Origin: Ignavibacteriales bacterium
GTDB lineage: Bacteria > Bacteroidota > Ignavibacteria > UBA10030
Length of the DNA stretch: 64,000 nucleotides
Direction: 5' to 3'
Assembly: GCA_026390585.1 (NCBI GenBank)
Contig: JAPLFP010000355.1
Span: forward strand, 12,779 to 76,778
In this document: piece after piece, positions 14,843 through 53,905 of the stretch
Layout: each line of letters begins with the position of its first letter
Numbering within the stretch: position 1 is the stretch's first letter
Made by a program: the position numbers and the translations under genes
Notes under the pieces: generated by a model
The model's input: only the letters and a program-made list of their open reading frames with translations
Database searches by the model: none
What the model was told of the DNA's origin: nothing

Positions 14843-14995
14843 CTCACGCAAAGTCCCGCTCTGCAACGAGTCATTGCGAACGCTTTCTGCGAAGCAATCT
14901 GTCGATAGATTGTCCCGCTTCTGGATTCCGCTTATGAGCGGGATTCAGAGAGCGGAACTTCGTCGCTTCGCTCCTCGCAAAGACTGGAAGCTAGT
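14843..14995. repeat. MITE-like palindromic repeat, copy A (GTCATTGCGA...GCGAAGCAATC family)
   Basis: shares caacgagtcattgcga..ctgcgaagcaatc and ccgcttatgagcgggattc modules with the copies at 32060-32276 and 53765-53905. Confidence 0.7.
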
Positions 14996-15208
14996 TGTCA
15001 CTGCACCAAATATGTCTCTGCGCCCTTGGCGCCTATGCCCCGAAGGGGGTCACTTCGAAACGTGACATTTTTGAGATGACTTCTTGTATGTTGCTGTTGC
15101 GCACTTGCCTTTTTTTTCGTACCGTTTCGGGAGCGATCGGTTCTCCAACACCCACCATCCGTCGCTTCGAATTCCATTCCGTCAATCTCTCTTCGTCAGG
15201 AGTCCGTC

Positions 15209-18200
15209 ATGGCCCGCTCGTTCGCAATTCTGTTTCTTACAATATTGAGCTGCAACCTCTTTGCTGAATCCCCGAGGGGATACTATCGATTCCCGGCACT
15301 CTCAGCCGACAAGATCATCTTCACTGCCGAAGGTGATCTTTGGAACGTTGAAATGCGCGGAGGAATCGCTCAACGACTGACTTCTCACCTGGGAACAGAA
15401 TCAAACGCTTCCGTTTCTCCGGATGGAGTGCTTATCGCGTTCTCTGCACAATACGAAGGACCAACCGAAGTCTACACAATGCCCATTGATGGCGGCATAC
15501 CAACACGACGAACGTACGACGGCGAGACAGCGACGGTGATCGGATGGACGCTCGATGGGAGGATCATTTATCAAACTTCCCACTTCTCGACGCTCCCGAA
15601 CCGACAGCTTCTGACCATCGATCTCAAAGGCGGACATGCCGACGTGCTTCCGCTCAGCCAGGCAAGCGACGGAAGCTTCGATGAAAAGGGAACGACATTG
15701 TATTTCACCCGCCTCCCCTTTCAGGGCAGCCATACGAAACGCTACAAAGGTGGAACTGCTCAGAACCTCTGGAAATACGAGCTTGGGAAACCCGAAGCCT
15801 TGCCACTCACAGCAGACTTTCCCGGCACGAGCAAGACTCCGATGTTCTGGCATCAGCGCGTTTACTTCGCGAGCGATCGAGACGGTACAATGAACATTTG
15901 GTCGATGAATGATGACGGAAAAGACCTGAAGCAACTTACATTCCACAAAGGTTGGGATGTGAAGTCGCCTTCACTCCGGAATGGCAAGATTGTCTATCAG
16001 GTGGGTGCGGACATTTTTCTTTTTGATGTTGCCGCGAACGTCGAGAATCTCGTCTCCATTTCCCTTGCGTCCGATTTCGACCAGGAGCGAGAGAAGTGGG
16101 TAAAGAAACCCATGGAGTATCTGACCGCAAGCAATCTCTCTCCGAACGGCGACAGGATTGCTCTCACGGCACGCGGACAAGTGTTCGTCGCTCCAGCCCA
16201 GCAAGGAAGACTTGTGCAAGCCACGAAAAAGGGGACTGTCCGTTTTCGAAATGCCAGGTTCATGCCCGACGGCAAGTCGCTTCTCATGCTCTCTGACGAA
16301 TCAGGCGAGCTTGAATTCTGGAAGGTACCCGCCAACGGCGTCGGAGATCCGGAACAACTCACGAGGGACGGAAAGGTGTCTCGATCAGAGGGCGCCCCCT
16401 CTCCGAATGGAACAATGTTTGCATTCGACGACAAGAATGGGAAACTGTGGATCTACAATATCGAGGAGAAGATGATGATCGAGGTCACGACCTCGACAAT
16501 TGCTGGAGGAATCGTCGGTTTCAGCTGGTCGCCGGACAGCAAGTGGCTCGCGTTCGTCGCATCGGCTGATAACAACAACCAGCAGATCAAACTCTATCAT
16601 GTCACTGATGGAAACACCATTGTCCTTACGCGGGACAGAGTCGAAAGCTACAGTCCGACATGGAGCGAGGACGGAAAGTGGCTCTATTTCCTTTCGGATC
16701 GTTTCTTTCAATCCCTGGTCGGCAGCCCCTGGGGGGCCAGACAGCCTGAGCCATATTACGACAAGACCACGAAGATCTATCACGTTTCGTTGAAGAAAGA
16801 CGGACGTTCGCCCTTCCTCCCCACAGATGAACTGGCAGCGATTCAACAAGAGAAGGACAAGGAGAAGGAGAAGGACAAAGAGAAAGACAAGAAGAAGGAG
16901 TCCGACGATCAGAAGAAGGAAAAGAGTGTGGATGTCGTCATCGATCTCGAAGGGCTCCAGGACAGGATCTGGGAAGTTCCCATCTCCGCCGGCAACTATG
17001 GCAGCTTGACGATGAACGAGAAGAACCTCTTCTGGCAGGAATCGGACCCTTCGCAGAACTTCAAGACAAAGCTCGTAGCACTGGAGATTAAGAACAAGGA
17101 CATCGCATCAAAAACGCTGGTTGAAGATATCGGCGGCTACGAACTCTCGCGTGATGGTAAGAAACTCTTCGTTCAAAAGAGCGGCGATCTGTTCGTGATC
17201 GACGCCTCGTCGACGCCACCAACGGAAATGTCCAAGAGCAAAGTCAACCTGGACAACTGGACGATGACGGTCAATCCACGGGATGAATGGCGACTCATGC
17301 TTCGTGAAGCCTGGCGACTCGAGCGCGACTACTTTTACGACACGAAACTCCACGGTATTGACTACAACGGGCTTCTGGCAAAACATCTTCCGCTCGTTGA
17401 CCGTGTGACTGACCGCGACGAACTGAACGACCTCATCTCAAGCCTTGTCGGTGAGCTTGCAGCGCTTCACACATATGTTTTTGGAGGTGATCGACGAACA
17501 ACGCTCGATCAGGTATCCCTTGCCTCATTCGGCGCGCTCCTCACCCGAGACGAGACGAACGGAGGATACAGAATCCAGCATATCTACAAGGGCGATCCGG
17601 ATTATCCGGAAGTTTCGTCCCCCCTCATCAGGAACAGCCTCGACATTCACGAGGGAGATGTCATCAAAGCGATCAATGGTGTACCAACCCTTTCCGTTGC
17701 ATCACCGTATCTTCTTCTTCGCAATCAGCTGAATCAGCAGGTGCTCTTGAAGCTCAAGTCTGCCAGTACGGCCAAAGAGTTCGACGCCATCGTGAAACCG
17801 ATTTCACAAAACGAGGAATTCAATCTCCGGTACACTGAGTGGGAGTATACGCGGCGACTGCTTGTCGATGAAACCAGCAAGGGGGACATCGGTTACGTTC
17901 ATCTGCGTGCGATGGGAGGTGGCAACTATACGGAATGGGCCAAGAACTTCTACCCCATCTTCAATCGGAAAGGGCTGATCATTGACGTCCGCCACAATAG
18001 CGGTGGTAACATTGACAGCTGGATACTGGAGAAACTGCTGCGAAAGGCCTGGTTCTATTGGAAGAACCGCCAAAATCAGCCGACGTGGAACATGCAGTAC
18101 GCATTCCGGGGACATCTGGTGGTACTCTGCGACGAACGGACAGCCTCTGACGGCGAAGCCTTCACAGAGGGGTTCCGAAGACTCGGCCTTGGGAAGGTCA

Positions 18201-18502
18201 TCGGCACGCGGACATGGGGAGGCGAGATCTGGCTTTCAACCCGGCCATGGTTGCAGGACAAAGGATTTGCGTCTGCAGCGGAAATGGGAGTCTATGGCCC
18301 TGAGGGAGAGTGGCTGATTGAGGGACATGGTGTCGATCCGGACATCGTCGTGGATAACCTCCCGAAAGCGACCTTTGATGGTAACGATGTTCAGCTCGCA
18401 GCTGCGATCAAATATCTGCAGGAGCAAATCAAGCTGCACCCGATTGAAGTCCCTCCTGCGCCGCGATTCCCGAACAAGGCATTTGACTACGACAAGAAAT
18501 GA
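15209..18502 (+). CDS. tricorn protease homolog (S41 family, beta-propeller + PDZ + C-terminal peptidase)
   Basis: 1097 aa; N-terminal YRFPALSADKIIFTAEGDLW and the C-terminal S41 catalytic region ASDGEAFTEGF...GTRTWGG. Confidence 0.8.
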   Translation: MARSFAILFLTILSCNLFAESPRGYYRFPALSADKIIFTAEGDLWNVEMRGGIAQRLTSHLGTESNASVSPDGVLIAFSAQYEGPTEVYTMPIDGGIPTRRTYDGETATVIGWTLDGRIIYQTSHFSTLPNRQLLTIDLKGGHADVLPLSQASDGSFDEKGTTLYFTRLPFQGSHTKRYKGGTAQNLWKYELGKPEALPLTADFPGTSKTPMFWHQRVYFASDRDGTMNIWSMNDDGKDLKQLTFHKGWDVKSPSLRNGKIVYQVGADIFLFDVAANVENLVSISLASDFDQEREKWVKKPMEYLTASNLSPNGDRIALTARGQVFVAPAQQGRLVQATKKGTVRFRNARFMPDGKSLLMLSDESGELEFWKVPANGVGDPEQLTRDGKVSRSEGAPSPNGTMFAFDDKNGKLWIYNIEEKMMIEVTTSTIAGGIVGFSWSPDSKWLAFVASADNNNQQIKLYHVTDGNTIVLTRDRVESYSPTWSEDGKWLYFLSDRFFQSLVGSPWGARQPEPYYDKTTKIYHVSLKKDGRSPFLPTDELAAIQQEKDKEKEKDKEKDKKKESDDQKKEKSVDVVIDLEGLQDRIWEVPISAGNYGSLTMNEKNLFWQESDPSQNFKTKLVALEIKNKDIASKTLVEDIGGYELSRDGKKLFVQKSGDLFVIDASSTPPTEMSKSKVNLDNWTMTVNPRDEWRLMLREAWRLERDYFYDTKLHGIDYNGLLAKHLPLVDRVTDRDELNDLISSLVGELAALHTYVFGGDRRTTLDQVSLASFGALLTRDETNGGYRIQHIYKGDPDYPEVSSPLIRNSLDIHEGDVIKAINGVPTLSVASPYLLLRNQLNQQVLLKLKSASTAKEFDAIVKPISQNEEFNLRYTEWEYTRRLLVDETSKGDIGYVHLRAMGGGNYTEWAKNFYPIFNRKGLIIDVRHNSGGNIDSWILEKLLRKAWFYWKNRQNQPTWNMQYAFRGHLVVLCDERTASDGEAFTEGFRRLGLGKVIGTRTWGGEIWLSTRPWLQDKGFASAAEMGVYGPEGEWLIEGHGVDPDIVVDNLPKATFDGNDVQLAAAIKYLQEQIKLHPIEVPPAPRFPNKAFDYDKK

Positions 18503-18517
18503 CCTGAAAGTCCGATG

Positions 18518-18562
18518 TGACCGTCACCTACCTGCGAACTCTGCGTAAGGTGACGGTCATCT
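18518..18562 (+). terminator. hairpin after tricorn gene (tgaccgtcacc...ggtgacggtca)
   Basis: perfect 11-bp inverted repeat with a 19-nt loop immediately after the stop codon. Confidence 0.45.
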
Positions 18563-18899
18563 TACTCCGCGATTCGGCACGCTCAGCACACCCTTCGTCT
18601 TCGCTCGCAAACAACCCTCGCTTCGCTCAGGGTGTGACACGTCTTTTTGTGGGATGGTGGACCAAACAAAACCGTGACACATCCTGAGCGCCTGCCCGCC
18701 CGCCGACGTCCCGAGGACTTAGGCGGGCCCGCCAAAGCGGAGCGCAGGCGGGGAGGGAGCGCTTTTTGCGACCGGAGTCGAACCCTTCGACACCTCTTAG
18801 ATAATACTTCGAAGTCGCTCAGGGTTCGACCCCGAGTGTAGTCGAGGGATCGAAGGATGAACCAAGCCGGCCTTCATGTCTACGGATATCCTAAATCGG

Positions 18900-21413
18900 T
18901 TACGGCCCGAATGGAGCGACGCTCGGCCGTAATGGTACCGCTTCTAGCCTCACTATTATCGACTCTTCTTTGAACCCATCAGACGATGCCTTCAGATCGA
19001 GCGTTCCAGCCTCCTTTATCGACTGGACAATGACCTGGCATTTTCCATTGAACAATCGCCGCCGGTATTGGCCGACAAGATACTTGTCAGGTTCGTGACT
19101 GCTTGGGTCACCGTTGCCAACGCCGATGATCTTGCCCATTCCCTTGAGGTCGAACCGGATGAGATTGTCCGCGACCGGCACTTCTCTTCCTTTGTCGTCA
19201 AGCGCTGTAACGGTCACAACAGTGACATCCTCCCCATCGGCTTGAATGAGAGTGCGATCCGCTACCATCTTGATCCTCACGGGTTGCCCCGTCGTTTCAA
19301 CTTTTCTCACCATCTGTTTACCGTTTCGCATCCCGCGAGCTTCAAGAATTCCGGGCTGGTAGGGAACCTTCCATTCAAGGTGAGAATTGAGCTCCATCGT
19401 TTTCTTCCCGAGGCTCTTGCCATTCAGGAAGAGTTCCACGCTTTCGCAATTGCTCTGGCACCACACATCGATCATCTGCCCTTCTTTCCCTCGCCAGTTC
19501 CAGTGCGGTGCAATGTGAAGAACATCCTTGTCAGACCACCACGACTGGTAATAGAAGAAGTTGTTCTTCGGAAAACCGCACACGTCCATGATACCAAAAT
19601 GCGAGTTGATGCAAGGCCAGCTGTAGGGAGTCGGCTCGCCGCGATAGTCGAAGCCGGTCCACACAAATGCTCCTGCAAGCCATTCCCTTGCGGCATAAAA
19701 TTTCCACCATTTTTCCGCGGTCGCCCCCCAACCCGGCGGGTAGAGATCGTAGTCGCACATGTACCCTCGTGCCGTGTCATTCGCGTAGATCCCTCTCGTG
19801 CACAACGTACTCGCCTCTTCGCTCCCCAGCAGAATCTGCTCGGGATGTTCCTTCCGGTACTTGTCGATATCACTTATGCTCATATAGTTGAAGCCGCGTA
19901 TCGGCAGTATGCCGTTGATGCCGTTGAACATGTTGCCATTGTTTGCAGCGTAGGTGTACAGACGCGTCGGATCGAGTTGTTTCAGCCGCACGATCAACGA
20001 TTGTGCGATCCGCTTGCCAATGTCTGTATTCTGAATGACCCATTCTTCGTTTCCCAGCGACCATAGGATGACCGACGGATGATTCCTGTCGCGGAGAACG
20101 AGCCTCTCGAATTGACCGATCAATTCCGGTGTACTTCCCATCAAACGGTTTTCGTCCAACACCAGCATACCGAGCTTATCGCACGCCTCGAGCAGCTCGT
20201 TCGTCGGTGGATTGTGACTCGTTCTGTACGCATTGCTTCCCATTTCCTTTAATCGCTCTATCCTGTAATACTGGAGTCGGTCAGGAAGAGCTGAACCGAC
20301 ACCCGCATGGTCCTGATGGTTGCACACACCCTTGATTTCCACCCGCTTGTCGTTGAGGAAAAGCCCCTTGTCTTTGTCGAAGTGGACGGTCCGGATGCCG
20401 AAGGCGGTTCTCACGCTGTCGACCGTCACACCGTGTGATCGGACAACGGAGACGAGCGTGTACAAGTGAGGTTGCTCGATTGACCAGAGGAGGGGATTAT
20501 TCACAGCCAGTTCACCGCGAACTGTCGTTCGCTCATTCGCCGGAACGGCAGTCTCTTTTGACGAAGACGCAGCAATTGTTCCGCGCTCGTCAATGACAAA
20601 CGAAGACAGAGTACATGGAGTGCCCGTTTCAGATGTGTTGATCACATCTGTTTCAGAGTACACCTGAGCCACATTCTTCGAGACAGCGGTGTGAACGAAG
20701 ATTCCATAATCCGGGATGTGTACGGGATCTGTCTTGATCAACCAGGTGTGGCGGTAAATGCCAGCCCCTTCGTAGAACCATCCTTCATATTGGCTGACAT
20801 CGACTCTTACAACGATGACGTTCTTCTGACCATATTGCAGATAATCTGTGATGTCATAGCTGAACTCCGAATAGCCGCTGAGGTTGTTCCCGAGGTAATG
20901 TCCGTTAAACCAGACGATGCAATCACGGAATACCCCATCGAATTTCACCTCCAGCCGGCGTCCTTCGTCCTCCTTCGGAACGAAGAAGGCACGCCGGTAC
21001 CAGCCGACGGTGGACTTCGCAAATTGCCGGCCAATTGGCTTGTAACCATGGCTTTTGACATCTTCGTCTTTCACGTTTACGAAATCCAGTTCCACCGCCC
21101 AGTCATGCGGCACATCAAGAGTACGCCACGTGCTGTCGTTGAAGTTGGGGTGAATTGCGCCGGCGGTCTCTCCCGCTTTCGCGAAGGTCGCTTGCACGCC
21201 GTACTCAAAATCATTTTTGGGATCGGAGGCATCACCGAGATGAAATTTCCAACCAGAATCGAGGAGGAGTTTTTCTCTGACGGCGTGAGGAGGGTTCAGT
21301 CCTAGTACGTCGGATGCACTTCTATTTTGAGTGAGGGAGAGTGAGGTCGAGAGAAGGCACAAGCTCATCAGGATTGCCATATGACGCAAGATACTTCCGG
21401 TTTTCGTAGCCAT
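18900..21413 (-). CDS. glycoside hydrolase family 2 (beta-galactosidase/beta-glucuronidase-like), secreted
   Basis: GH2 TIM-barrel motifs (NAYRTSHNPP, WSLGNEEW) and an N-terminal signal peptide. Confidence 0.8.
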   Translation of the reverse strand: MATKTGSILRHMAILMSLCLLSTSLSLTQNRSASDVLGLNPPHAVREKLLLDSGWKFHLGDASDPKNDFEYGVQATFAKAGETAGAIHPNFNDSTWRTLDVPHDWAVELDFVNVKDEDVKSHGYKPIGRQFAKSTVGWYRRAFFVPKEDEGRRLEVKFDGVFRDCIVWFNGHYLGNNLSGYSEFSYDITDYLQYGQKNVIVVRVDVSQYEGWFYEGAGIYRHTWLIKTDPVHIPDYGIFVHTAVSKNVAQVYSETDVINTSETGTPCTLSSFVIDERGTIAASSSKETAVPANERTTVRGELAVNNPLLWSIEQPHLYTLVSVVRSHGVTVDSVRTAFGIRTVHFDKDKGLFLNDKRVEIKGVCNHQDHAGVGSALPDRLQYYRIERLKEMGSNAYRTSHNPPTNELLEACDKLGMLVLDENRLMGSTPELIGQFERLVLRDRNHPSVILWSLGNEEWVIQNTDIGKRIAQSLIVRLKQLDPTRLYTYAANNGNMFNGINGILPIRGFNYMSISDIDKYRKEHPEQILLGSEEASTLCTRGIYANDTARGYMCDYDLYPPGWGATAEKWWKFYAAREWLAGAFVWTGFDYRGEPTPYSWPCINSHFGIMDVCGFPKNNFFYYQSWWSDKDVLHIAPHWNWRGKEGQMIDVWCQSNCESVELFLNGKSLGKKTMELNSHLEWKVPYQPGILEARGMRNGKQMVRKVETTGQPVRIKMVADRTLIQADGEDVTVVTVTALDDKGREVPVADNLIRFDLKGMGKIIGVGNGDPSSHEPDKYLVGQYRRRLFNGKCQVIVQSIKEAGTLDLKASSDGFKEESIIVRLEAVPLRPSVAPFGP

Positions 21414-21466
21414 GGCACGTTCGCCTTTCCACAGAGTATTTACGGAAAACCTCCTATTACCGGATC

Positions 21467-21916
21467 CTACACAATACGCTCAAGTTCTCCTTCGCCCATA
21501 TAGATAAGCGTGACGCCGATCTCTTTTGCGTACGCCGTTATTCTTTCGTCCTTGTAGAATTCCATGTAGTAGATGACCTTGATACCGCAGTTGACGACAA
21601 GCTTGAAGCACGCAAGACACGGAGAGGCGGTGACATAGAGCTCGGAATCGTTGATGGCAACGCCATTCTTCGCCGCCTGAGCTACGGCGTTCGCTTCGGC
21701 ATGAACCGTTCTCACGCAGTGACCGTTATCGATATCATGGCCCACGTCGTCGCAGTGTGCTGCTCCCCGCAGACTGCCGTTGTATCCGGTCGAGAGGATC
21801 GTCCGGTCCCTCACAATAACCGCACCGATGTGTTTTCGATCGCAGGTGCTGCGAGTGGCCACCTGTTCAGCGATTTTCATGAAGTACTCATGCCATTCTA
21901 TTCGTTTGTCATCCAT
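21467..21916 (-). CDS. dCMP deaminase / ComEB-type cytidine-deoxycytidylate deaminase
   Basis: HAEANA and PCLACFK zinc-binding motifs. Confidence 0.85.
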   Translation of the reverse strand: MDDKRIEWHEYFMKIAEQVATRSTCDRKHIGAVIVRDRTILSTGYNGSLRGAAHCDDVGHDIDNGHCVRTVHAEANAVAQAAKNGVAINDSELYVTASPCLACFKLVVNCGIKVIYYMEFYKDERITAYAKEIGVTLIYMGEGELERIV

Positions 21917-22483
21917 GGAGGTGCCTCTCTGTGCGGCAAGATTGTTGCAGGTAAGAACCCCGACTTCTCATATTGACCCTGTCGTAGAAGTCGGGATTCT
22001 ACACTTAGCAGGATTGATTCGACCTGCCAATGATATTCAAACAATGGACTGAAAGCAAGGAGCGTGCTGTGTGTGGTTGATCGGCAATTAGTCATTTCGT
22101 GAAGAGAGGATGGAGCCCAGGTTGGTTTCGGAGTTCTATTTACGCCTTAAGTGTCACGCTCACACCCCAGAAGACATCACCACGAGGACCAGCGTTGGCA
22201 CAACTGAGAAAAGACTCCGGTGAGGAACTTGACTTTCTCAGCTGAGAACTCTAGATTTGCATTGTCGTTTCAAACAGGGAGAGTACCTACCTACATTTTG
22301 CCACGCTGTTAGTTCGCTTCACGTTTTCATAGAAGGCATTTATCTCACTTCTGGAGGCATCGCTCCGTTCTTGCTAACGCTTTGGCACTTTTGCGACCAA
22401 ACGCCATTTCATTCCACTCAATGAGCAAGGGAGCGCTTATGACCATCATCACCTGTCCGACCTTTGCCGGGACACAGAATAGC

Positions 22484-24664: not shown

Positions 24665-24765
24665 GCCACGAATAAGAGATGTCCCTTCCATTTGTGGCAT
24701 TAGACGCGTATCTTAGACACCGTTGTTTCACTGAACCAAGCCCTCATCAGACCTGAAGCAGAACT

Positions 24766-25476: not shown

Positions 25477-25477
25477 C

Positions 25478-25560
25478 CACGTCAAACTCGAAACTGAAAG
25501 TCCGAAACGACAAGGAAAAGTCAAAAACAAAGTTCAAATCGAAGTGCTTTGGCAAAGAGT
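25478..25560. repeat. A/T-rich left arm of IVS-like inverted repeat flanking four-helix-bundle gene
   Basis: cgaaactgaaagtccgaaacgacaaggaaaagtcaaaaacaaagttcaaatcgaag; approximate reverse complement of 26016-26085. Confidence 0.5.
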
Positions 25561-25650
25561 AACTTCGCAATTCGATTGACCGACTTTTCGTCATCGACCT
25601 AATCCTCCTCAAAATCTCCTATATTCTGCCGGACATTCTCAGGAACTCGA

Positions 25651-26013: not shown

Positions 26014-26015
26014 CT

Positions 26016-26085: not shown

Positions 26086-26094
26086 GATTGGGAG

Positions 26095-26135: not shown

Positions 26136-26175
26136 CCAGACCAGCCGCCGATGTGAACCGACGACTGCAAGATTC

Positions 26176-30940: not shown

Positions 30941-31142
30941 TGGTTTCTCGCATAACGTAAAACAGAGGTGTCGGGACTTTGGTCCTGACACTGCGACGCC
31001 TGATTTCGAGACATCGTCATATCAGCGTCAGGAGGTAACTCCTGACGCCACAGCGCTAATTCGTTGCCTTGGCCGCTAGGATCCACACCTTGGCGGTGAA
31101 CCGCTGAGGCTGTCCCACAGACCATAGTTGTCATTTCGAAGG

Positions 31143-31235
31143 AGCCCCGCCTTTGGCGGGGTAGACTCCGCGACTGAGAAATCTGAATGAAACGAAAGAT
31201 TTCTCCCTGCGGTCGAAATGACAATGACACTTTTG
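31143..31235. repeat. palindromic element related to MITE family (TIRs gtcatttcgaagg / gcggtcgaaatgac) with two internal hairpins
   Basis: 11-bp terminal inverted repeat; internal ccccgcc tttg gcgggg and gagaaatct..agatttctc hairpins. Confidence 0.5.
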
Positions 31236-31932: not shown

Positions 31933-32059
31933 AACAACCTCCGGCAAAAGTGCGTCAGCGATATGTGTGAGATGACCTGGAAAGAATGTAACACCTTTTC
32001 CAGACATCCTCTCAATCAAAATGCGCTAGAATTCATCCCAAAAAGGATAAGAAAATCTG

Positions 32060-32276
32060 ACGCTAAAACTCGCTGCTCGCAATAGACTATAGCAACGAGT
32101 CATTGCGAGCGTTCTTTGCGAAGCAATCTATACATGGACAGATTGCTTCGTCGTCCCGTCAGAAAGCAACGGGACTTCTCGCAATGACTTGGTTGTATGT
32201 ATTGGTCTGCGCCTTTGCATTTCCGCCCTATGAATCCCGCCTATGAGCGGAATCCGAAAGTGGGACTTTGCGTGAG
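32060..32276. repeat. MITE-like palindromic repeat, copy B (most complete)
   Basis: arms agtcattgcgagcgttctttgcgaagcaatc / gattgcttcgtcg...ctcgcaatgact, plus cccgcctatgagcggaatcc and gggactttgcgtgag modules. Confidence 0.75.
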
Positions 32277-32426
32277 ATTATTAGCTGAGACAGATTCATT
32301 TTTGAGGTGGTTTCTGAACACCAGGCATGAAATAAAAATGCGCCGAATGGTCTCAGCGCATTTCTTCAGGTGCAACAATATGTCATCAGTCAATTCATTG
32401 CCACAAATGCGAAATCAGGCTCGGAC

Positions 32427-32906
32427 TCAGTGGTGCCCGCCGGATCCATGAACATGACCGTGGTCGAGCTCATCGGGCGTCGGTTCCCGAACGCCGACAA
32501 CCTTCACCTCGAAATTCAGAGTCTTTCCGGCGAGTGGATGGTTTGCGTCGACGGTGACAGTATCCCCCTCGACTTTTGTGACGGTAACAATTTGTTCCCC
32601 CGTGCTGCTGTGGACGCCGAATTGCATTCCGGTTTGCACGTCGTCGACACCGCTGAACTGAGTCTTCGGGATTTCGATGATCTTCTCCTGATCCCACTCA
32701 CCGTACGCATCGACCGGCGGCACGGAGACTTTCAATGTCTCACCAGCGCTCTTTCCCTCGAGCGACGCCTCGAGCCCGGGGATGATGTTTCCGATGCCAT
32801 GAATGTAAGTCATCGGTTCCTGGCCTTCAGAGCTTTCGATCAGAGCACCGGATTCGTCTGTCAATATATACTCGATGGTGACGACTTTGTTTTTCTGAAT
32901 TGTCAT
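32427..32906 (-). CDS. slyD: FKBP-type peptidyl-prolyl cis-trans isomerase SlyD (His-rich C-terminus)
   Basis: FKBP domain plus an IF-like insert and an HGHVHGSGGHH tail. Confidence 0.8.
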   Translation of the reverse strand: MTIQKNKVVTIEYILTDESGALIESSEGQEPMTYIHGIGNIIPGLEASLEGKSAGETLKVSVPPVDAYGEWDQEKIIEIPKTQFSGVDDVQTGMQFGVHSSTGEQIVTVTKVEGDTVTVDANHPLAGKTLNFEVKVVGVREPTPDELDHGHVHGSGGHH

Positions 32907-33059
32907 TGCAGTCTTTTGTGTTGGGAAAAAGTTGAACATGCAAGATAGAAAGAACCGTACAAACTGCAAGGAATTTCGGGGAGTGTTGCACCAAGCTGCG
33001 GCTTCAATAGGTGCTCACTCTATATTATGGGAGATCACTGGTGGATTACAGCGGTGGTG

Positions 33060-33312
33060 CGGAAGGATGAATCTGGAAATACCAAGGAAACTCTAAATCC
33101 GTAGTCAAATAAATCCTAAATTCCAAATTCGAAGTCTCAAAGAAATCTCAAACCCTAAATCCGAAATCTCAAAGAAATCCCAAACTTGAAATTGCAAACA
33201 AACACAAGACTCGAAAACCAAAGCAGGAACCCATTTGAGATTTGTCATTTAGGATTTCGTATTTCCTTTGTATTCCCTTGGGATTTCGATATTAGAGTTT
33301 CGGATTTTGCCC
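33060..33312. repeat. A/T-rich low-complexity inverted repeat ('empty' IVS-like element)
   Basis: left half is rich in AAATC/CAAAG units (aaatctcaaagaaatc x2); the right half is its approximate reverse complement (gagattt, ggatttcg). Confidence 0.5.
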
Positions 33313-42897: not shown

Positions 42898-43111
42898 ATT
42901 TCAGAAGATCATCAATACCAACTTCGTGTCCCAACGGGTGGCCCAACAGCCACCCGTTTGCGTTTGTTTGCCAGCCTCGTCCTACAGCTCCCCGGTTTCT
43001 TAAATCCTTCGAAACGGCGCTCTGTGGATTCAAATGGATTTTCCGTACAATGGCATGAATGTTTGAAGATGTGAATCCTGAATTCTCATCAGTTTTTCTG
43101 AGGGAATACCG

Positions 43112-43918: not shown

Positions 43919-43956
43919 TCCCCGGCCTTGAGTGTACTCTCCGATTTTATTTCCGC

Positions 43957-45015: not shown

Positions 45016-45252
45016 GTGCTGCAGAAAGAGCGATTGCTCTGGAACTAGGCATTCTCAGGTAGGCGTTCACTGCTGACACAACGGAAAGCTGCTTTGCCCA
45101 GCGCCAGGGTGTGATCTACTCTGACATTTCAAAACTCGCGCAAGCGAATCGCGGTCGCATTCTCTCACGCTTTCTCCGATTCCCAAGTTGTGTGCTGCTG
45201 GAAATGGAGGAACGATGTGCCTCCTTTCTCAGAAACTCGCCTGCGTTTCAAG

Positions 45253-47181: not shown

Positions 47182-47349
47182 CGTTCGAGACCTTTGATAA
47201 TTGTGAAGTGGGATCGTTCTGGTGCAACTCGGTGCGTGTTTTTCGAAATAGCCTCTGCTAACTCGCCTGCAATCTATAAAAGAAAATCAAGATCTGCACG
47301 GCAATTGACAGGAATACGGTCTGGGTGTCTCATTTGTGAGAATCTTCTG

Positions 47350-47382
47350 TTGGACGGAATGCCATTCCGTCCAACAAATCAG
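47350..47382. terminator. perfect 15-bp-arm palindrome (ttgttggacggaatg c cattccgtccaacaa) downstream of ABC-F gene
   Basis: perfect inverted repeat 20 bp after the ABC-F stop codon; weak U-tract, so it could instead be a protein-binding site. Confidence 0.45.
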
Positions 47383-47402
47383 TGAAACGAACGGAAGCCG
47401 GT

Positions 47403-49355
47403 TCAGTGCTCGCTTCGGACTTTTTCTATCTCGCTCTGGATTGTGTCCCACTGATCGTATGCTCTCGCGAGAAGCTGCTCAAGTTCCTTTCGTTCCACGG
47501 AGATCTTCTTCGCTTCAGCACCGTTCTTGTAGAGCTCGGGGTCGAGCATCGCTGCTTCAATTTCCTTATGACGCGATTCGAGTTTCTCAATCTCGCGTTC
47601 CATTGTCTCGACTTTTAGTTTCAGCGGTCGCAGTTTGACGGAGAGTTGTTGACGGTGCTCGGCTTCGATGCGTTTCCGATCTTTGTCGCTCTTCTCGAAC
47701 GCTGAGGCCGCTTTCTTTTCTGCCGCCTCCGATTTCACAGAGGCTTCTCTTTCCTCCCGTTTTTTCGCGATGTAGTCTGAGATGTTGCCGATGAATGTCC
47801 TCACCGTTCCGCTCCCCACTTCCAACACTTTGTTGACAATCGGATCGAGAAAGTACCGGTCGTGCGAAACGATCAAGAATGTCCCATCATAATGAAGAAG
47901 GGCTTCCTGCAGGACTTTTTTCGATTTCATGTCCAGGTGATTCGTGGGCTCGTCGAGGACCAAAAAGTTTGCCGGTTTCAGTAGCATCTTTGCAAGGGCA
48001 ACCCGGCTTTTCTCGCCGCCGGAGAGAACAGAGACTTTCTTGAACACGTCGTCGTCATGAAAGAGAAATGCACCGAGCAACGAGCGCAGCCGCCTTCTGA
48101 TGTCCCCCTCGGCAATCTCATCAATGGTATCGAGCACTTCTTTGGATGGATCGAGCTCTTCCGCCTGATGTTGCGCGAAATAAGAGAGCGTCACGTTATG
48201 ACCGACGATGCGCTTTCCCGAGTTGAATGACTCGACGCCGGCAATGATCCTCGTCAGCGTGGACTTTCCCGCGCCGTTGAGTCCAACGATAGCAATTCTC
48301 TCACCTCGTTCGACCTTGAGATCGAGGCTCTCAAAGACCTCGATCGGCCCGTAGCTTTTCGCGAGGTCCTTCAGTTCCATCACGATGCGGCCACTGGGAG
48401 GGGGCTGCGGAAACTCGAAACGGATGCCGCTCTCCTCAGGCTCGACTTCAATGATTTCCACCTTCTCCAGTTGCTTGATGCGGCTCTGCACCTGGCGTGC
48501 CTTCGTCGCCTTGTATCGAAATCTCTCAATGAACTCCTGAGTTTCTTTCAGGCGCTGCTGTTGATTCTTCATCGCCTGGATCTGAAGCTCCCGGCGTTTT
48601 ACACTTTCGGTCTCAAAGAAGGAATAGTTGCCCGAATACTGCTCAAGCCTTGTCATCGTCAGCGCAAAAGTCCTCGAACAGAGATTGTCCAGAAATGTCC
48701 GATCGTGCGACACCAGGACGACAGCCCCATGATAGCTCCGCAGATACTCTTCCAGCCATTGCAGTGTTTCGAGATCGAGATGGTTGGTTGGCTCGTCCAG
48801 CAAAAGGACCGACGGTTCCCGTAGCAACAGCTTTGCCAGCTCTATTCGCATTTGCCATCCACCGCTGAACTCTTCCGTCATTCGGGTGAGATCCGATACA
48901 GAGAATCCGAGCCCCATGAGCACGCTCTCGACCTTCGACTTCATCCGGAAGGCGTCCAGGTCTTCGAGCTTGTGCTGAAGTTCACCATAGACTTCTATCG
49001 TTTCGGCGTATTCTTCGGACTGCGGATCGAGCCGTATCATGCTCCGGTGCGCCTCGTCGAGTTCCTGCTGGATCTCGAGAACATCCTCGAACGCAGACGC
49101 CGCCTCTTCATAGAGCGTCCTTCCGCAGACAGCAACACCTTCTTGTTGCAGGTATCCAACTGTGACGAATTTGGCCTTGCTGACGGTGCCGGAATCGGGC
49201 TGCACCAGTCCGGTGATGATCTTCAGGAGCGTCGTCTTGCCGGTACCGTTGGAACCCACCAATCCAATGCGATCATGCGGACTGATCATGCAGGAAAGGT
49301 CGTTGAACAGAACACGACCTCCAAATTGGAGCGCTATGTGTTCGAGGGAGAGCAA
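47403..49355 (-). CDS. ABC-F family ATPase (Uup/EttA-like, two ABC domains + C-terminal coiled coil)
   Basis: duplicated Walker A/B and LSGG signatures; the conserved N-terminus LSLEHIALQFGG begins at a TTG (49355), with no in-frame ATG nearby. Confidence 0.8.
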   Translation of the reverse strand: MLSLEHIALQFGGRVLFNDLSCMISPHDRIGLVGSNGTGKTTLLKIITGLVQPDSGTVSKAKFVTVGYLQQEGVAVCGRTLYEEAASAFEDVLEIQQELDEAHRSMIRLDPQSEEYAETIEVYGELQHKLEDLDAFRMKSKVESVLMGLGFSVSDLTRMTEEFSGGWQMRIELAKLLLREPSVLLLDEPTNHLDLETLQWLEEYLRSYHGAVVLVSHDRTFLDNLCSRTFALTMTRLEQYSGNYSFFETESVKRRELQIQAMKNQQQRLKETQEFIERFRYKATKARQVQSRIKQLEKVEIIEVEPEESGIRFEFPQPPPSGRIVMELKDLAKSYGPIEVFESLDLKVERGERIAIVGLNGAGKSTLTRIIAGVESFNSGKRIVGHNVTLSYFAQHQAEELDPSKEVLDTIDEIAEGDIRRRLRSLLGAFLFHDDDVFKKVSVLSGGEKSRVALAKMLLKPANFLVLDEPTNHLDMKSKKVLQEALLHYDGTFLIVSHDRYFLDPIVNKVLEVGSGTVRTFIGNISDYIAKKREEREASVKSEAAEKKAASAFEKSDKDRKRIEAEHRQQLSVKLRPLKLKVETMEREIEKLESRHKEIEAAMLDPELYKNGAEAKKISVERKELEQLLARAYDQWDTIQSEIEKVRSEH

Positions 49356-49546
49356 GGAGTATGAAGTATGGAAGTAATAAGTAATAGAGTACGGATGCAG
49401 ACAGTATGCAGAGTTCAGCGGGCAGACTGTTTCCGGGTTCTCTTGTGATAGGAATATACGGAATTGGACGTGAAGATGAGAGCAGGGCGTGGCAAAAAAA
49501 GAGCCCCCTACGCGGGGGCTCTTCATTTTTGGTTATTTCTCATTAG

Positions 49547-50512
49547 CTACTTTATCAACTGCATCGTCCGTTCCTGCACGAACTCTCCGCTGCGGATTCT
49601 GTAGATGTATGTGCCGCTGGCGAGATTCTTCCCATCAAACGTGACCGTGTGAGTTCCCGCACCAAGTTCAGAGTCGACGAGTGTGCCTACTTCTTTGCCG
49701 AGCATGTCGTAGACAACGAGGGTAACATGGTCCGCCCTTGGAATCGTGAACGAGATTTTCGTTGATGGATTGAACGGATTCGGATAGTTGGTTTCCAGCG
49801 CATAGCCATCCGGAGTCACAGAGTCCGCGTTATCCGGACTTGTGGAATCGTCGCTCAACATCCGGTTCACTTCCGGCAGATCCTGTCCGTCCCAGAGCAT
49901 GAACTTGGCAGCCGCAAGCTTTCCCTTCATATCGTCACCCATCAATGCCCCGAGCGTCTTGAGCCGCTCGATGGCTTTTGCCAAAGCCGCCTTGAATCCC
50001 ACCGACAGATCTTCTTTGTGGACTTCATACCATCTCAATCCTACTCTTTTGATTCCAGCTTTCCATTCGGTGCCGAACGGCTTCGCATCTTTGCCGATAC
50101 TCTCTAGTGTCGCTTTGTATTTGACGCCGAGAGGCTTCAGGTCCGTAAGGAGGGCCTGCCGATCCGTCGCAAGCTCTTTTATCTTCTGCCGGTACATTCT
50201 GATATCGCTCGCATTGTTGTTTTGCATGGCCTTTTTCAAAGCAAGAGCGAGTCTCGTCCCCTTCATTTTGAGCTGCGCGGCACGATCCCGAAGCGCATTC
50301 AGAGCACGGAGGTCGGCTGGAGCCATGGAACGGTCCAGTGTGCCTTTCCATTCCTTCATTTTCGGGATGATGTTCCCCTGCGCATAGTCACGGACACCCT
50401 TGTAGAGTTCCTTGAGCGCATCTTTTGTTTTTTGATCGAGGACTCTCCCCTGGGAAAACGCACTGCTGCCGATGAACACCACCAGAGCAATGAGTAACAG
50501 CATTTTTTTCAT
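49547..50512 (-). CDS. secreted protein with T9SS C-terminal sorting domain
   Basis: signal peptide; C-terminal NYPNPFNPSTKI...GTYIYRI Por_Secre_tail. Confidence 0.6.
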   Translation of the reverse strand: MKKMLLLIALVVFIGSSAFSQGRVLDQKTKDALKELYKGVRDYAQGNIIPKMKEWKGTLDRSMAPADLRALNALRDRAAQLKMKGTRLALALKKAMQNNNASDIRMYRQKIKELATDRQALLTDLKPLGVKYKATLESIGKDAKPFGTEWKAGIKRVGLRWYEVHKEDLSVGFKAALAKAIERLKTLGALMGDDMKGKLAAAKFMLWDGQDLPEVNRMLSDDSTSPDNADSVTPDGYALETNYPNPFNPSTKISFTIPRADHVTLVVYDMLGKEVGTLVDSELGAGTHTVTFDGKNLASGTYIYRIRSGEFVQERTMQLIK

Positions 50513-50782
50513 ACATGCCTCCCTTTTCACTGATGAACAATTACTTGGAAACTTATGCCAAACTTGCGCAGGTAAATGCTTTGTTGCCTGCTTGGGGATT
50601 CGATGCTAAAACCCTTGGTTCGGTTTAACGGGCAAGACGGTAGAATTCTCTCTTTCCAAGTTCGCTCTTGAAAGACAAATATGCAACAGGATGAGAATCT
50701 GCGTTGGTTTGGCTATTCTCCGTTCAAAACACTACATTTGTGTCAATCTTGCACATAGTCTGGGCTTTTGACAGGAAGGATC

Positions 50783-51274
50783 ATGCAAATCAGGGTTTTC
50801 GTCACAGGCGGGACATTCGATAAAGAGTACAATGAACTCGACGGGAGGCTCTACTTCAAAGATACACACCTGAAGGAGATGCTGTCCCTCGGCAGATCCA
50901 AAGTCAGGGTCGACATCAGGACACTGATGATGGTGGACAGCCTGGAAATGACGGACCAGGACCGGCAGATCATTCTCGACCAATGCTCGAAGTGCACTGA
51001 AGACAAGATTCTTATCACGCATGGCACCGATACAATGGAAGTGACTGCGCGGGTTCTCGGGCAGTCAGTGAAAGACAAGACGATCGTCCTGACGGGAGCA
51101 ATGATTCCGTACAAATTTGGGAGTTCCGACGGTCTCTTCAATCTTGGAAGCGCACTCGCCTTTGTTCAGACGCTGCCGCATGGAGTCTATGTTGCGATGA
51201 ATGGAAAGTGCTTACCCTGGAACAATGTTCGCAAGAACAAGCAAACTGGCGAATTCGAGGAGATCACGAAGTAA
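50783..51274 (+). CDS. asparaginase-family N-terminal-domain protein
   Basis: VFVTGGT...THGTDTM threonine-containing motifs of L-asparaginase; only ~163 aa; GGAAGG RBS. Confidence 0.55.
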   Translation: MQIRVFVTGGTFDKEYNELDGRLYFKDTHLKEMLSLGRSKVRVDIRTLMMVDSLEMTDQDRQIILDQCSKCTEDKILITHGTDTMEVTARVLGQSVKDKTIVLTGAMIPYKFGSSDGLFNLGSALAFVQTLPHGVYVAMNGKCLPWNNVRKNKQTGEFEEITK

Positions 51275-52536
51275 TGTCGGCACTGAAATCAGATCCGGAT
51301 ATTGTGATCGTCGGTGGTGGACTCGCGGGCCTGGCTTGCGCTCGGCACCTTCAACAGCATGGCATCTCATTCCAAATCATCGAAGCATCGGACGGCCTCG
51401 GAGGCCGCGTACGAACGGATCGCGTTGCAGGATTCCTTCTCGATCGCGGTTTTCAGGTTCTTCAGACTGCATACCCCGAAGCACAAAGGGTGCTAGACTA
51501 CACCAGACTTGGTCTCCGCACGTTCTTCCCTGGCGCGGTAATTCATATCGATGATCAATCTTACCGCGTCGCAGATCCGCTGCGAATGCCCCTCGCGGCA
51601 TTTGAATCTCTCTTCTCCCCCATCGGGACGATGAGCGACAAGGTCCGTCTTCTTGCTCTTCGTCAGCGCCTTCGCAGACAATCGATCGACTCGATCTTCA
51701 AGAGCGAGGAGCGGACGACACTGGACGCTCTGCAGCGCGAAGGATTCTCTCCCACTATTGTCTCAACATTGCTTCGTCCCTTTCTCAGAGGGATCTTCCT
51801 TGAGAAGGGACTGAAGACGTCGAGCAGGATGTTTGAATTTGTCTTCAAGATGTTCGCCGATGGACACGGTGCCCTTCCGGCAAATGGAATGGGAGCCATT
51901 CCGGATCAACTGGCAAGCACGCTCCCGGCGGAGTCGGTCCGACTCAATACCAGAGTTATTTCCGTGTCACCCAACTCGGTGACCCTGGAATATGGTGAGC
52001 ATGTGCAAGCTCGTGCAGTCGTCGTGGCGACAGAAGGGCCCGAAGCATGTCGACTCATCCCGGGACTTGAGCCTGTGATCTCTTGCAGCACGACCTGCAT
52101 GTATTTCGTCGCGGACTATGATCCTCTCGGTTCTCCGATTCTGGCATTGAATGGCGACGGGTCCGGAGTCATCAACAGTCTCTGCGTCCCAAGCTCGGTC
52201 GCTCCATCGTACGCTCCTGCCGGGTCTTCGCTAATTTCCGTCTCAATTCTCGGGATCCCGGAGGAAGACAACAAGAAACTCGAGACGTCTGTACGTTCTC
52301 AACTCAAGTCCTGGTTCGGACCAAAAGTCGACTCGTGGAGGATTTTCCGCACCTGCCGGATTCTTCATGCGTTGCCGAGCCAGGCGTTTCCTGCCCTCTC
52401 TCAGCCACAGCGACCGGTGAAGATGGAACAGGGATTGTATGTTTGCGGCGATCACCGCGATACCGCGTCCATTCATGGCGCCCTCGTCTCCGGCCGAAGA
52501 ACTGCCGAGACAATTCTCGAAGACTTCGCATTCTAA
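51274..52536 (+). CDS. NAD(P)/FAD-dependent oxidoreductase (amine-oxidase / phytoene-desaturase-like)
   Basis: IVIVGGGLAGLACA dinucleotide-binding motif; start overlaps the previous stop (TAATG). Confidence 0.75.
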   Translation: MSALKSDPDIVIVGGGLAGLACARHLQQHGISFQIIEASDGLGGRVRTDRVAGFLLDRGFQVLQTAYPEAQRVLDYTRLGLRTFFPGAVIHIDDQSYRVADPLRMPLAAFESLFSPIGTMSDKVRLLALRQRLRRQSIDSIFKSEERTTLDALQREGFSPTIVSTLLRPFLRGIFLEKGLKTSSRMFEFVFKMFADGHGALPANGMGAIPDQLASTLPAESVRLNTRVISVSPNSVTLEYGEHVQARAVVVATEGPEACRLIPGLEPVISCSTTCMYFVADYDPLGSPILALNGDGSGVINSLCVPSSVAPSYAPAGSSLISVSILGIPEEDNKKLETSVRSQLKSWFGPKVDSWRIFRTCRILHALPSQAFPALSQPQRPVKMEQGLYVCGDHRDTASIHGALVSGRRTAETILEDFAF

Positions 52537-52563
52537 GTCATTACCCCCTCACTACCATCCCAT

Positions 52564-53160
52564 ATGGCCACGCACCTGTCCGATGAAGAGCTGATCAAAC
52601 GAGCGAAGAAAGGCGACGAGCGAGCCTTCACGCAACTTGTGCGGAGGTACGAGTCTCTCGTTTACAGCTTCGCGTTCAAGGTCTGCAGGAACGAGGAAAA
52701 AGCGAGCGAGACGTGGCAAGATACGTTTGTCAATGTCTTCAGAAAGCTCCATCAGTTTGATGGACGATCGAAGTTCACAACGTGGCTCTACAGCATTGTG
52801 ACCAATAGCTGCCGAATGAAGCGGCGGCAGCGCAAGCTGGATAAGGCTTCCGTATCCATCGAGTCACCAACGGAGTCTCACGATGGTTCTGATGACGATC
52901 CATCCGTGCTGACGATTCCCCCGTGGAAAGACACGCCCCTGGATGCTGTGATTGACAAGGAATTGCGAACTCTGCTCGATGAAGCGATTCAACGATTGCC
53001 GTATGACTACAGGGTTGTCTTTGTTCTGCGTGATGTCGAAGGTATGTCCGCCGAGGAAACCGGAAAAATCCTGAAACTGAGTGTACCGGCCGTGAAATCA
53101 CGCCTTCGACGGGCCCGGGTCTTTTTACGCGAACAGCTCAATCCCTACATGACCGCATGA
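52564..53160 (+). CDS. ECF (sigma-70 family group IV) RNA polymerase sigma factor
   Basis: sigma2/sigma4 regions (FTQLVRRYE..., VLRDVEGMSAEETGKIL). Confidence 0.85.
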   Translation: MATHLSDEELIKRAKKGDERAFTQLVRRYESLVYSFAFKVCRNEEKASETWQDTFVNVFRKLHQFDGRSKFTTWLYSIVTNSCRMKRRQRKLDKASVSIESPTESHDGSDDDPSVLTIPPWKDTPLDAVIDKELRTLLDEAIQRLPYDYRVVFVLRDVEGMSAEETGKILKLSVPAVKSRLRRARVFLREQLNPYMTA

Positions 53161-53396
53161 AAAAGAAAACTGTGCGTTGCGACGATGTCCTGAACCATAT
53201 ATGCGAGGAGCTCGATACCAAGCTCACGTCTGCCAAATGCCGTGAGCTCAAACGACACCTCGAACGATGTCCAAACTGTACGGCATATCTCGACAGTCTG
53301 CGCAAGACCATTATGCTGTACTCCTCCACACCCAACCCGCGATTACCTCAGAAGGCCCGAAGACAGCTTTTTGCCGCTCTCAAGCTCAAATCCTAG
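53157..53396 (+). CDS. zinc-binding anti-sigma factor (ZAS/RsrA-like, HxxxCxxC)
   Basis: HLERCPNCTAYLDSL motif; ATGA overlap with the sigma gene stop. Confidence 0.65.
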   Translation: MKKKTVRCDDVLNHICEELDTKLTSAKCRELKRHLERCPNCTAYLDSLRKTIMLYSSTPNPRLPQKARRQLFAALKLKS

Positions 53397-53494
53397 CTTC
53401 CGAGACGTCCTCCAGAATCCTTTTCGCGATGCAGGCATCTCAAGTAGTGAATCATCGTACACTGAAGTTCATTCACTTTCCTAGGGAGGCTGTT

Positions 53495-53701
53495 ATGAAG
53501 AAAAACATGGGTACCGTTGACCGGTCGATTCGGGTTCTCTTGGCTCTCATCGTCGCAGTATTGTATTTCACAAACCAGATATCGGGTACGGCCGCTATCG
53601 TTCTCGGTTTGTTCGCTGTGATCTTCCTGATAACGAGTTTCATGGCATTTTGCCCGTTGTATGTTCCATTCAAGATATCGACGAAGAAGGAAGCGGCATA
53701 A
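53495..53701 (+). CDS. DUF2892 (YgaP-like) small membrane protein
   Basis: 68-aa two-TM protein with an N-terminal GTVDRxIR motif; GGAGG RBS. Confidence 0.6.
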   Translation: MKKNMGTVDRSIRVLLALIVAVLYFTNQISGTAAIVLGLFAVIFLITSFMAFCPLYVPFKISTKKEAA

Positions 53702-53764
53702 ATCTGAAGAATCAGTCTCAAAATGGATAAGACATTCTTACGCCAAGTCGCGCCGCTTCCAATG

Positions 53765-53905
53765 AACTATAGCAATAGGTCATTGCGAGCGTTTTTTGCG
53801 AAGCAATCCGTCGTGGGATACATGGATGGATTGCTTCGTCGTCGAAAAGAAAAGCAACGGACTCCTCGCAATGACTGGGTTGTATGTGTTGCTCTGCGTC
53901 TTTGC
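53765..53905. repeat. MITE-like palindromic repeat, copy C
   Basis: actatagcaataggtcattgcgagcgttttttgcgaagcaatc...gattgcttcgtcgtc...ctcgcaatgactgggttgtatgt; near-identical over ~120 bp to copy B. Confidence 0.75.

Follow-up and report, generated by a model that had tools for sequence, protein, structure and literature searches.

A 64-kb stretch of Ignavibacteriales DNA, referred to here in its entirety as the window, carries three related palindromic repeats (copies A, B and C), and our analysis supports a model whereby they probably form one family of composite non-autonomous mobile DNA elements, each consisting of a shell that resembles a MITE (miniature inverted-repeat transposable element) around a doublet of repetitive extragenic palindromic (REP) units. 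At three orthologous sites the composite is either there in full or missing in full, as a single block, and it is also found at unrelated loci elsewhere. Its inner doublet is found by itself, too, in unrelated surroundings and in several phyla, its shell occurs without the doublet in one fetched comparison locus (L160; all such loci and contigs carry L numbers), and a third small hairpin module (module Y) is placed differently in A and B. The kinds to which the elements belong, REP doublets and MITEs, are well known; the family is new within them and represents an ordinary genomic parasite.

A REP-doublet profile built solely from sequences outside the window detects exactly three doublets within it (nhmmer; E 2e-16 in C, 2e-14 in B and 5e-10 in A; Table 1). 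Repeat searches of the window show ~80% identity between B and C over ~190 bp (repeat families D1, D3, D7 and D20) and 79-83% identity of the core of A (14863-14909) to both. Outer inverted repeats and alignments with empty sites together define elements of 230-293 bp, all of them intergenic; only spurious open reading frames (ORFs) overlap them, and the two that were checked (14995-15267 and 32370-32948) have no Pfam match. The original prediction for this DNA, a MITE-like, non-autonomous palindromic repeat family with intergenic copies, of which A would be rearranged and B and C similar, agrees with these results: three copies lie where it placed them with no fourth in the window, the doublet of A is interrupted by a 45-nt hairpin module, and the family is multicopy, non-coding, bounded by inverted repeats, site-polymorphic and present at unrelated loci in other assemblies. 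Its spans (14843-14995, 32060-32276 and 53765-53905) are right in place and too short, the true elements being longer; the palindrome that it described is there but consists of two layers, a REP-type doublet nested within a shell that bears terminal inverted repeats (TIRs); and the shorter relative that it put at 31143-31235 is a real element that actually lies at 31130-31222.

The outer shell of all three copies has imperfect TIRs of 17-21 nt (consensus CTAGAAYYCATCTCAAAAA; 75-82% complementary) and a subterminal inverted arm, TCTCACGCAAAGTCCCG, and at the centre of each copy lie two inverted hairpin units forming a doublet of 85-115 bp, GTCATTGCGAGCG..GCGAAGCAATC - loop - GATTGCTTCGTCG..CTCGCAATGAC. 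Alignment of eight copies gives a plan in which the left half runs from the TIR through a subterminal arm ..AAAATAGTCTCACGCAAAGTCCCG and a remnant CTCGCAATGAAC, then ACTAWAGCAAYRA, to the doublet, and the right half from the doublet through TTGGTTGTATGT..CTGCGCCTTTGC and an inverted arm to the right TIR CATTTTTGAGATGGYYTCTAG. The inverted arm reads GGGACTTTGCGTGAGA in B, several other copies keep only CTTTGCGTGA of it, and module loss differs from copy to copy. The left TIR motif of A also terminates B, C, L151 and L142, and the A-type subterminal arm recurs in L151 and L160. A pattern for module Y matches twice in the window, on the plus strand in A and on the minus strand in B (0.12 matches expected), with all stem pairs Watson-Crick or G-T on the strand named; no further copy was found in any fetched locus. 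The element cores are predicted to fold as Y-shaped or long hairpins on either strand, with z-scores of -4 to -8 against dinucleotide shuffles and none of 200 shuffles as good. The B core gives a Y-shaped fold (-48.5 kcal/mol, z -6.4), the C core reaches -49.3 kcal/mol (z -6.1), and the whole of B, folded as single-stranded DNA, forms one end-to-end hairpin with its termini paired (dG -51.1 kcal/mol, z -4.4). Elsewhere in the window, a 141-bp intergenic element (4763-4903) has 18-nt inverted ends, TGAGGCTGTCTCAAAAGT / ACTTTTTAGACAGCCTCA, that are 94% complementary; its terminal motif, GTCTCAAAA, is similar to the element ends of all three copies, its interior lacks a REP doublet, and it may be a related shell or another MITE.

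Orthologous loci, fetched from relatives via flanking proteins that are 86-95% identical, provide the empty counterparts of the filled sites. At site B, the spacer between the SlyD and LUD genes measures ~200 bp in L152, L153, L155, L156 and L157 (LUD proteins 86-95% identical) and lacks the element; both flanks match around a single gap that covers B, as expected of a clean insertion. At site A, downstream of a GH3 gene, L161 reads GAAGTA followed directly by ACGTTGTTGTTGCGC where the window reads GAAGTA, the 283 bp of the element and then ATGTTGCTGTTGCGC, and L160 has the same outer arms around a different, non-REP interior. At site C, L158 and L159 lack the element, their YgaP-like proteins being 88-90% identical and their spacers 85-125 bp long. 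Because the sites are empty in relatives with such similar flanking proteins, A, B and C are, as judged from these alignments, recent insertions.

Composite copies 85-92% identical to B occur in unrelated flanks in the Bacteroidota metagenome-assembled genome JBGPAN01 (L121 and L122), in the metagenome contigs L142 and L151 and, in part, in L130. In L121, an 8-bp direct repeat, GCCGATCA, abuts both element ends. The same ATTGC doublet is found within a different MITE in L126 and L141, with TIRs CTCACCTTACGC / GCGTAAGGTG and flanking 9-bp direct repeats (AATTAAACA / AGTTAAACA and ACCTCCTAT / ACCTCCTAT) that, in sequence terms, are the signature of a DDE transposase. Movement as one block, inverted ends, the direct repeat in L121 and the existence of this sister family all make the composite resemble a MITE in its behaviour. 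Two candidate target signatures were rejected: a 9-bp repeat near B, AAAATGCGC, is native and also surrounds the empty sites, and a TA target as in IS630/mariner is present in the empty sequence of site A and lacking in that of site B.

The inner doublet has a distribution of its own. The half-site query GTCATTGCGARCG-N(2-20)-GCGAAGCAATC matches at least 120 IMG/VR contigs with unrelated flanks, and a pattern for the T-rich loop variant of the window matches 29 metagenome contigs, in nearly all of which the sequence outside GTC...GAC is unrelated. The canonical full doublet, GTCATTGCGAGCGnAGCGAAGCAATCCAG - loop - CTGGATTGCTTCGTCGC..GCTCCTCGCAATGAC, occurs as unannotated copies of an 81-mer on plasmids of Novosphingobium, Methylosinus, Methylocystis, Methylobacterium, Halomonas and the cyanobacterium Aulosira, with at least 40 places on one Novosphingobium replicon; among curated phage genomes, only partial matches to the 81-mer were obtained, in 6 of 50,697 records. 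In the phage-like IMG/VR loci L001, L010, L093, L036, L077, L078 and L106 the unit is often single, with a CTC tail replacing CCA; such single units lie a few nt upstream of a ribosome-binding site and start codon and are sometimes preceded by short direct repeats of the unit's first 10-12 nt.

Units are laid out as (C/T)GTC - ATTGC - GAGCG..GCGAA - GCAAT - C(CA), with the GTC tags facing outwards. The stem has five Watson-Crick pairs (ATTGC/GCAAT) and starts with A-T and T-A, and the loop of 12-17 nt often contains a GCGAAGC mini-hairpin; a nine-pair stem would be possible only if tandem G-A pairs and a bulge were allowed. Relatives from other loci have C or T before GTC in 172 of 181 units, as do 143 of 154 doublet matches when both strands are counted, and the commonest tails are CCA (73 of 181) and CTC (53). 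The window copies keep GTC itself, preceded by A, A and G and with A at the opposite end, and their tails are CTG, CTA and CCG. About 109 distinct doublets with tags outside compare with 111 single units. Doublets are either perfect homodimers or heterodimers in which the loop of the second unit contains a variable hairpin, and all window copies are heterodimers. The arm 5-mer recurs at four positions, the 5' and 3' stem of unit 1 and of unit 2, and this four-arm plan appears at various loci in ATTGC, ATTTC, ATTCT, ATTCC, ATCCC and ACCCC versions, with no instance in shuffled sequence. It is also followed by the stand-alone doublet at 31130-31222, at whose site L155 has the ATTTC type, L157 an ATTCT-type doublet and L156 none. 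Tandem arrays and partial terminal copies of the doublet are frequent (L146, L140 and L127), and flanking direct repeats around isolated doublets are no more common than in a null distribution.

The mosaic was probably built up as small hairpin elements inserted, in nested fashion, into the middle of a larger palindrome, because L160 has a shell without a doublet, module Y is placed differently in A and B, and L122 contains a second shell-plus-doublet. Precedent for such nesting comes from REP dimers embedded in longer palindromes (PMC3733652) and from the doublet within different TIRs in L126 and L141. The composite would then have been moved in trans by a transposase recognising its inverted ends. 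The doublet itself, by contrast with DDE transposition, may spread by a structure-specific single-strand-DNA route, like REP/REPIN sequences cut by HUH Y1 enzymes; pointing to this route are the lack of target duplication, the constant loop, 5-bp arms that change in concert at four positions, and the frequency of tandem arrays and partial terminal copies. The second structure in L122 lies ~80 nt past the right end of the composite's REP doublet (reverse-strand view) and has inverted ends CGAGACTGTGTAAAAAG / TTTTTACACAAACTCGG around an ACTCT/ATTCT-type doublet, GTCACTCTGAGCGTAGCGAAGAGTCTC...GATTCTTCACTTCGTTCAGAATGAC, so the layout of a REP inside a palindrome recurs with different sequences.

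A bolder proposal, which we consider tentative and on balance rather unlikely, is that the ATTGC-type doublet is an orphan mobile hairpin that crosses phyla and is mobilised by an enzyme reading the structure of single-stranded DNA, as the constant GAGCG..GCGAA loop, the constant GTC tag and the four arms changing in concert might suggest. If so, the enzyme would perhaps belong to a HUH family not yet described or be a host factor for replication or repair; it would be common to Alphaproteobacteria, Gammaproteobacteria, Cyanobacteria and Ignavibacteria, and phages might carry it. Riding in DDE-type MITE shells, the situation of the window family and of L126/L141, could offer a second way to spread for REPs with a CGTC tag, which have been described as having no transposase of their own.

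Several points weigh against the model of a mobile composite. The search for a mobilising enzyme, by tblastn with three Y1 queries (a RAYT-like YafM sequence, IS200 TnpA and IS608 TnpA) against the first 152 fetched sequences (1.35 Mb including the window), gave no IS200/RAYT-like ORF in the window. Neither shell nor doublet has a transposase partner among the window and the fetched loci, where no cognate insertion sequence (IS) with the same termini was found either, and IMG/VR scans with the TIR and the subterminal arm yielded no TIR-flanked ORF; their yield was limited to chance matches, a single phage gene family and, in L219 and L220, a left arm standing alone. The sole Y1 match in the 152 sequences, an IS200 ~80 bp from a doublet, has hairpin ends of its own and was judged coincidental. 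Target-site duplications of the composite are inconsistent, the filled/empty alignments of A and B allowing 0 or at most 3 bp; the TIRs are only 75-82% complementary; and about eight composite copies in all, from four assemblies, are a small number. At site C, native sequence was replaced rather than cleanly interrupted. The units also depart from published CGTC families, which have stems of 8-9 bp and loops of 4-5 nt (PMC3733652), in their 5-bp stem and conserved 12-17 nt GAGCG..GCGAA loop, and the window copies are tagged AGTC or GGTC, not CGTC or TGTC, with CTA, CCG or CTG tails. The absence of a nearby Y1 transposase agrees with the published lack of a dedicated enzyme for CGTC REPs (PMC3733652).

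An improbable alternative is that the elements are structured RNAs (small RNAs, mRNA-stabilising 3' hairpins or terminators) kept for function, with mobility secondary. The strong folds fit this idea, as do the replacement by C of a native terminator-like hairpin downstream of the YgaP-like gene, the pairing of module Y through G-T, in both A and B, on the flanking genes' strand alone, and the case made by Di Nocera et al. for transcription of many REPs (PMC3733652). However, Rfam has no gathering-score match in the window and, at E up to 1, only two chance-level matches, off the elements, in seven loci with canonical copies. Among 94 heterodimers, moreover, G-T mismatches (20) are not in excess of A-C mismatches (26; p 0.46), and orientation relative to neighbouring ORFs shows no bias (14 co-oriented, 23 anti-oriented, 13 convergent and 11 divergent, from crude ORF calls that miscall the context of B). 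B is antisense to both of its neighbours and A and C are sense, and no U-runs follow the cores. The suggestion in the original prediction that the copies may carry promoters or terminators finds no support in the three copies: there are no sigma-70-like promoter sites by a consensus that may not suit the phylum, and the lone terminator-like site is a weak hairpin (15049-15066) with a T-run in the right arm of A. These results give no evidence that a role as RNA or in regulation maintains the elements. Local effects are possible, most clearly at C, where a large hairpin replacing a terminator might affect neighbouring genes as a side effect and not as the reason for the element's existence.

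Less probable still is a scenario in which the doublets are not transposed at all but spread via hairpin-primed template switching, gene conversion or recombination, the TIRs being remains of older palindromes. Such host transactions would accommodate the lack of a transposase, as published for CGTC REPs (PMC3733652), the isolated doublets without target duplication, the common tandem arrays and partial terminal copies, and the joint change of all four arms that sets L157 apart from the window at one site and might be due to templated homogenisation. They do not account for whole 230-290 bp blocks with sharp borders at three unrelated sites, for near-identical copies in unrelated flanks of other genomes or for a sister family with classic 9-bp flanking duplications, and homologous recombination cannot place a sequence where homology is absent. 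Finally, a shared cis-regulatory site, such as the operator of one dimeric regulator binding ATTGC-N12-GCAAT, is scarcely credible and close to refuted, because, despite intergenic copies and half-units that are themselves ATTGC..GCAAT inverted repeats, the flanking genes are functionally unrelated (GH3/tricorn protease at A, SlyD/LUD at B and YgaP-like/anti-sigma at C), orthologous spacers of close relatives lack the elements, Proteobacteria, a cyanobacterium and viral contigs carry the same sequence between unrelated flanks, and 5-mer arms that vary in concert around a fixed loop are the opposite of a sequence-specific operator. The concern attached to the original prediction, that only these loci might share the sequence as the site of one regulator, is answered by the copies at unrelated loci elsewhere.

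Table 1. Positions of the composite elements, their parts and the stand-alone REP doublet in the window.
Feature	Position	Strand	Details
Composite element A	14805-15087	+	Outer shell and interrupted REP doublet; 283 bp; nhmmer E 9.5e-49 with a composite profile that includes the window copies themselves
A left TIR	14804-14820	+	AGAACCTATCTCAAAAA; pairs with 15068-15084, 82% complementarity
A subterminal arm	14837-14860	+	AATAGTCTCACGCAAAGTCCCGCT; 92% complementary to B right arm 32259-32282
A REP doublet	14870-14984	+	Left unit 14870-14899, loop, right unit split at 14912/14958; nhmmer E 5.3e-10
Module Y in A right REP unit	14913-14957	+	45-nt hairpin, core GGATTCCGCTTATGAGCGGGATTC; pattern search
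A right TIR	15068-15084	+	TTTTTGAGATGACTTCT; inverted-repeat search
Stand-alone REP doublet	31130-31222	+	Variant arm ATTTC/GAAAT replacing ATTGC/GCAAT; passes four-arm test; fold -48.5 kcal/mol, z -7.3
Composite element B	32026-32318	+	Most complete copy; about 286-293 bp; gap against five orthologous spacers
B left TIR	32028-32047	+	AGAATTCATCCCAAAAAGGA; pairs with 32296-32315, 75% complementarity
B REP heterodimer	32099-32188	+	GTCATTGCGAGCGTTCTTTGCGAAGCAATC - loop - GATTGCTTCGTCG - (GTCCCGT..ACGGGAC hairpin) - CTCGCAATGAC; nhmmer E 2e-14
Module Y core in B right arm	32232-32255	-	Inverted relative to A; pattern search
B right subterminal arm	32259-32282	+	AGTGGGACTTTGCGTGAGATTATT; complementary to A arm
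B right TIR	32296-32315	+	TCATTTTTGAGGTGGTTTCT; inverted-repeat search
Composite element C	about 53708-53937	+	About 230 bp, boundaries good to ~8 bp; nhmmer 53703-53941, E 2.3e-65
C inverted arms	53715-53735 and 53909-53929		Inverted-repeat search
C REP heterodimer	53779-53875	+	nhmmer E 2.4e-16

The surroundings of C clarify how this copy relates to its neighbours. C lies between a YgaP-like gene (53429-53701) and the second of two zf-HC2 anti-sigma-like paralogues (53157-53396 and 53951-54202; 49-50% identical), and an extracytoplasmic function (ECF) sigma gene (52564-53160) lies upstream of the zf-HC2/YgaP-like group in the window as in relatives. The 144-aa ORF 53267-53701 overstates the YgaP-like membrane protein gene, homologues of which have 90 aa. 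Relatives without C share the gene order sigma - zf-HC2 - YgaP-like - zf-HC2 - OsmC, so C was inserted into a pre-existing spacer; the native terminator-like structure at its position in L158 and L159 is a GC hairpin with a T-run. It had been proposed that C splits an ECF-sigma/anti-sigma locus from a duplicated anti-sigma gene, and here the duplication is real and the split is not the work of C, whose arrival the order predates. Near site B, the closest relative, L155 (LUD 95% identical), has a different insertion of ~125 bp nearer the LUD start (about 1150-1275), rich in CACAGAG/CTCTGTG motifs that have similar counterparts in L065, and this insertion is probably another dispersed repeat family.

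Further repeats were noted in the window. Three tandem 32-nt repeats, TCAAATAAATCCTAAATTCCAAATTCGAAGTC, with 69-75% identity lie in an apparently non-coding stretch (33105-33200). A 63-nt direct repeat (59629-59691 and 61551-61613; 89% identity, 1.9 kb apart) has its first copy at the 3' end of ORF 58286-59692 and its second shortly after ORF 60587-61531. A duplicated 101-nt segment (4391-4491 and 5338-5438; 78% identity) is followed in each case by a similar GC hairpin, AAGGCCCGG..CCGGGCCTT, at 4533-4556 and 5479-5502, a pattern that suggests tandem duplication of a 3' gene end with the terminator attached.

Marking three intergenic regions as recent insertions matters for the annotation of promoters, terminators and spurious small ORFs in this part of the genome; in one relative, the gene call extends LUD 29 residues upstream of the conserved start. 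The copies also give strain-level markers for Ignavibacteriales populations, and they add an Ignavibacteriales example to the CGTC-type REPs, whose spread has been a question since 2013. Together, the pairs of filled and empty sites, the shell without a doublet and the sister MITE with 9-bp duplications could be used to test autonomous against passenger movement of the hairpins.

Among known systems, the CGTC-tagged REPs are the most similar to the doublet. As described by Di Nocera, De Gregorio and Rocco (2013, BMC Genomics 14:522), these have a CGTC or TGTC tag (CCTC is also allowed), a CCA tail and a stem opening with two A-T pairs; they form mainly head-to-head dimers with the tags outside, some of them inside longer palindromes, are commonest in Alphaproteobacteria and present in Chlorobi and Bacteroidetes groups, and have no reported associated transposase gene (PMC3733652). 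The unit shares with them the A-T stem start, and in relatives from other loci it has an unpaired (C/T)GTC tag and a short tail, most often CCA; the window copies keep GTC and deviate at the preceding base and in the tail. The doublets analysed here likewise have outside tags, heterodimers with unequal loops, intergenic positions, hosts among Alphaproteobacteria and the Chlorobi/Bacteroidetes group and no adjoining transposase. This comparison of sequences suggests that the doublet belongs with or very near the CGTC-tagged REP superfamily, and we place it beside, not inside, a named family. The nearest published family is probably CGTC-3, a likeness that rests on our own back-translation and not on a printed sequence: its intragenic peptides VIAGLDPAIH (Additional file 4, PMC3733652) back-translate to GTC-ATTGCCGGG-CTTGA-CCCGGCAAT-CCA, with the same outer stem. 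Neither the text nor the supplements of the two REP papers closest to the subject, PMC3733652 among them, contain the doublet sequence or its translations. In the long GH3-downstream spacer of L161 (about 4700-5030) we noted textbook CGTC-1-like units, GTCATTCCGGCGAAAGCAGGAATCCAG and CGTCATTCCCGAATGCTCTTGTCGGGAATCTAG, as well as a minimal TGTCATTGCAGCAATCCA, so the relatives of the source organism carry several REP types. A full-text literature search with 10-11-mers of the palindrome returned primers and unrelated matches only.

REPINs, reportedly described by Bertels and Rainey in 2011 as REP doublets that form hairpins and are mobilised by RAYT, offer a second comparison. Like these and the bacterial interspersed mosaic elements (BIMEs) of E. 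coli, the doublet consists of two inverted REP units that make one long hairpin as the replicating unit, with singletons as remnants, tandem and mosaic clusters and no target-site duplication; unlike it, REPINs have GT[AG]G tags in place of GTC and a cognate RAYT gene flanked by its own REPs, of which none was seen here. Hammerhead-like or other ribozyme cores, CRISPR repeats and integron attC sites were considered and set aside, their defining motifs being absent from the sequence. Finally, the composite shares with bacterial MITEs (Correia/NEMIS, RUP, Nezha and ERIC) a size of 230-293 bp, the lack of coding capacity, TIRs, multiple intergenic copies, insertion polymorphism between relatives and a fold into a single long hairpin. 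It differs from them in having no known parent IS with matching ends, in its inconsistent target duplications and in its centre, which is an independently distributed REP doublet; because of this centre, the composite is best described as a mosaic and not as a deletion derivative of an IS.

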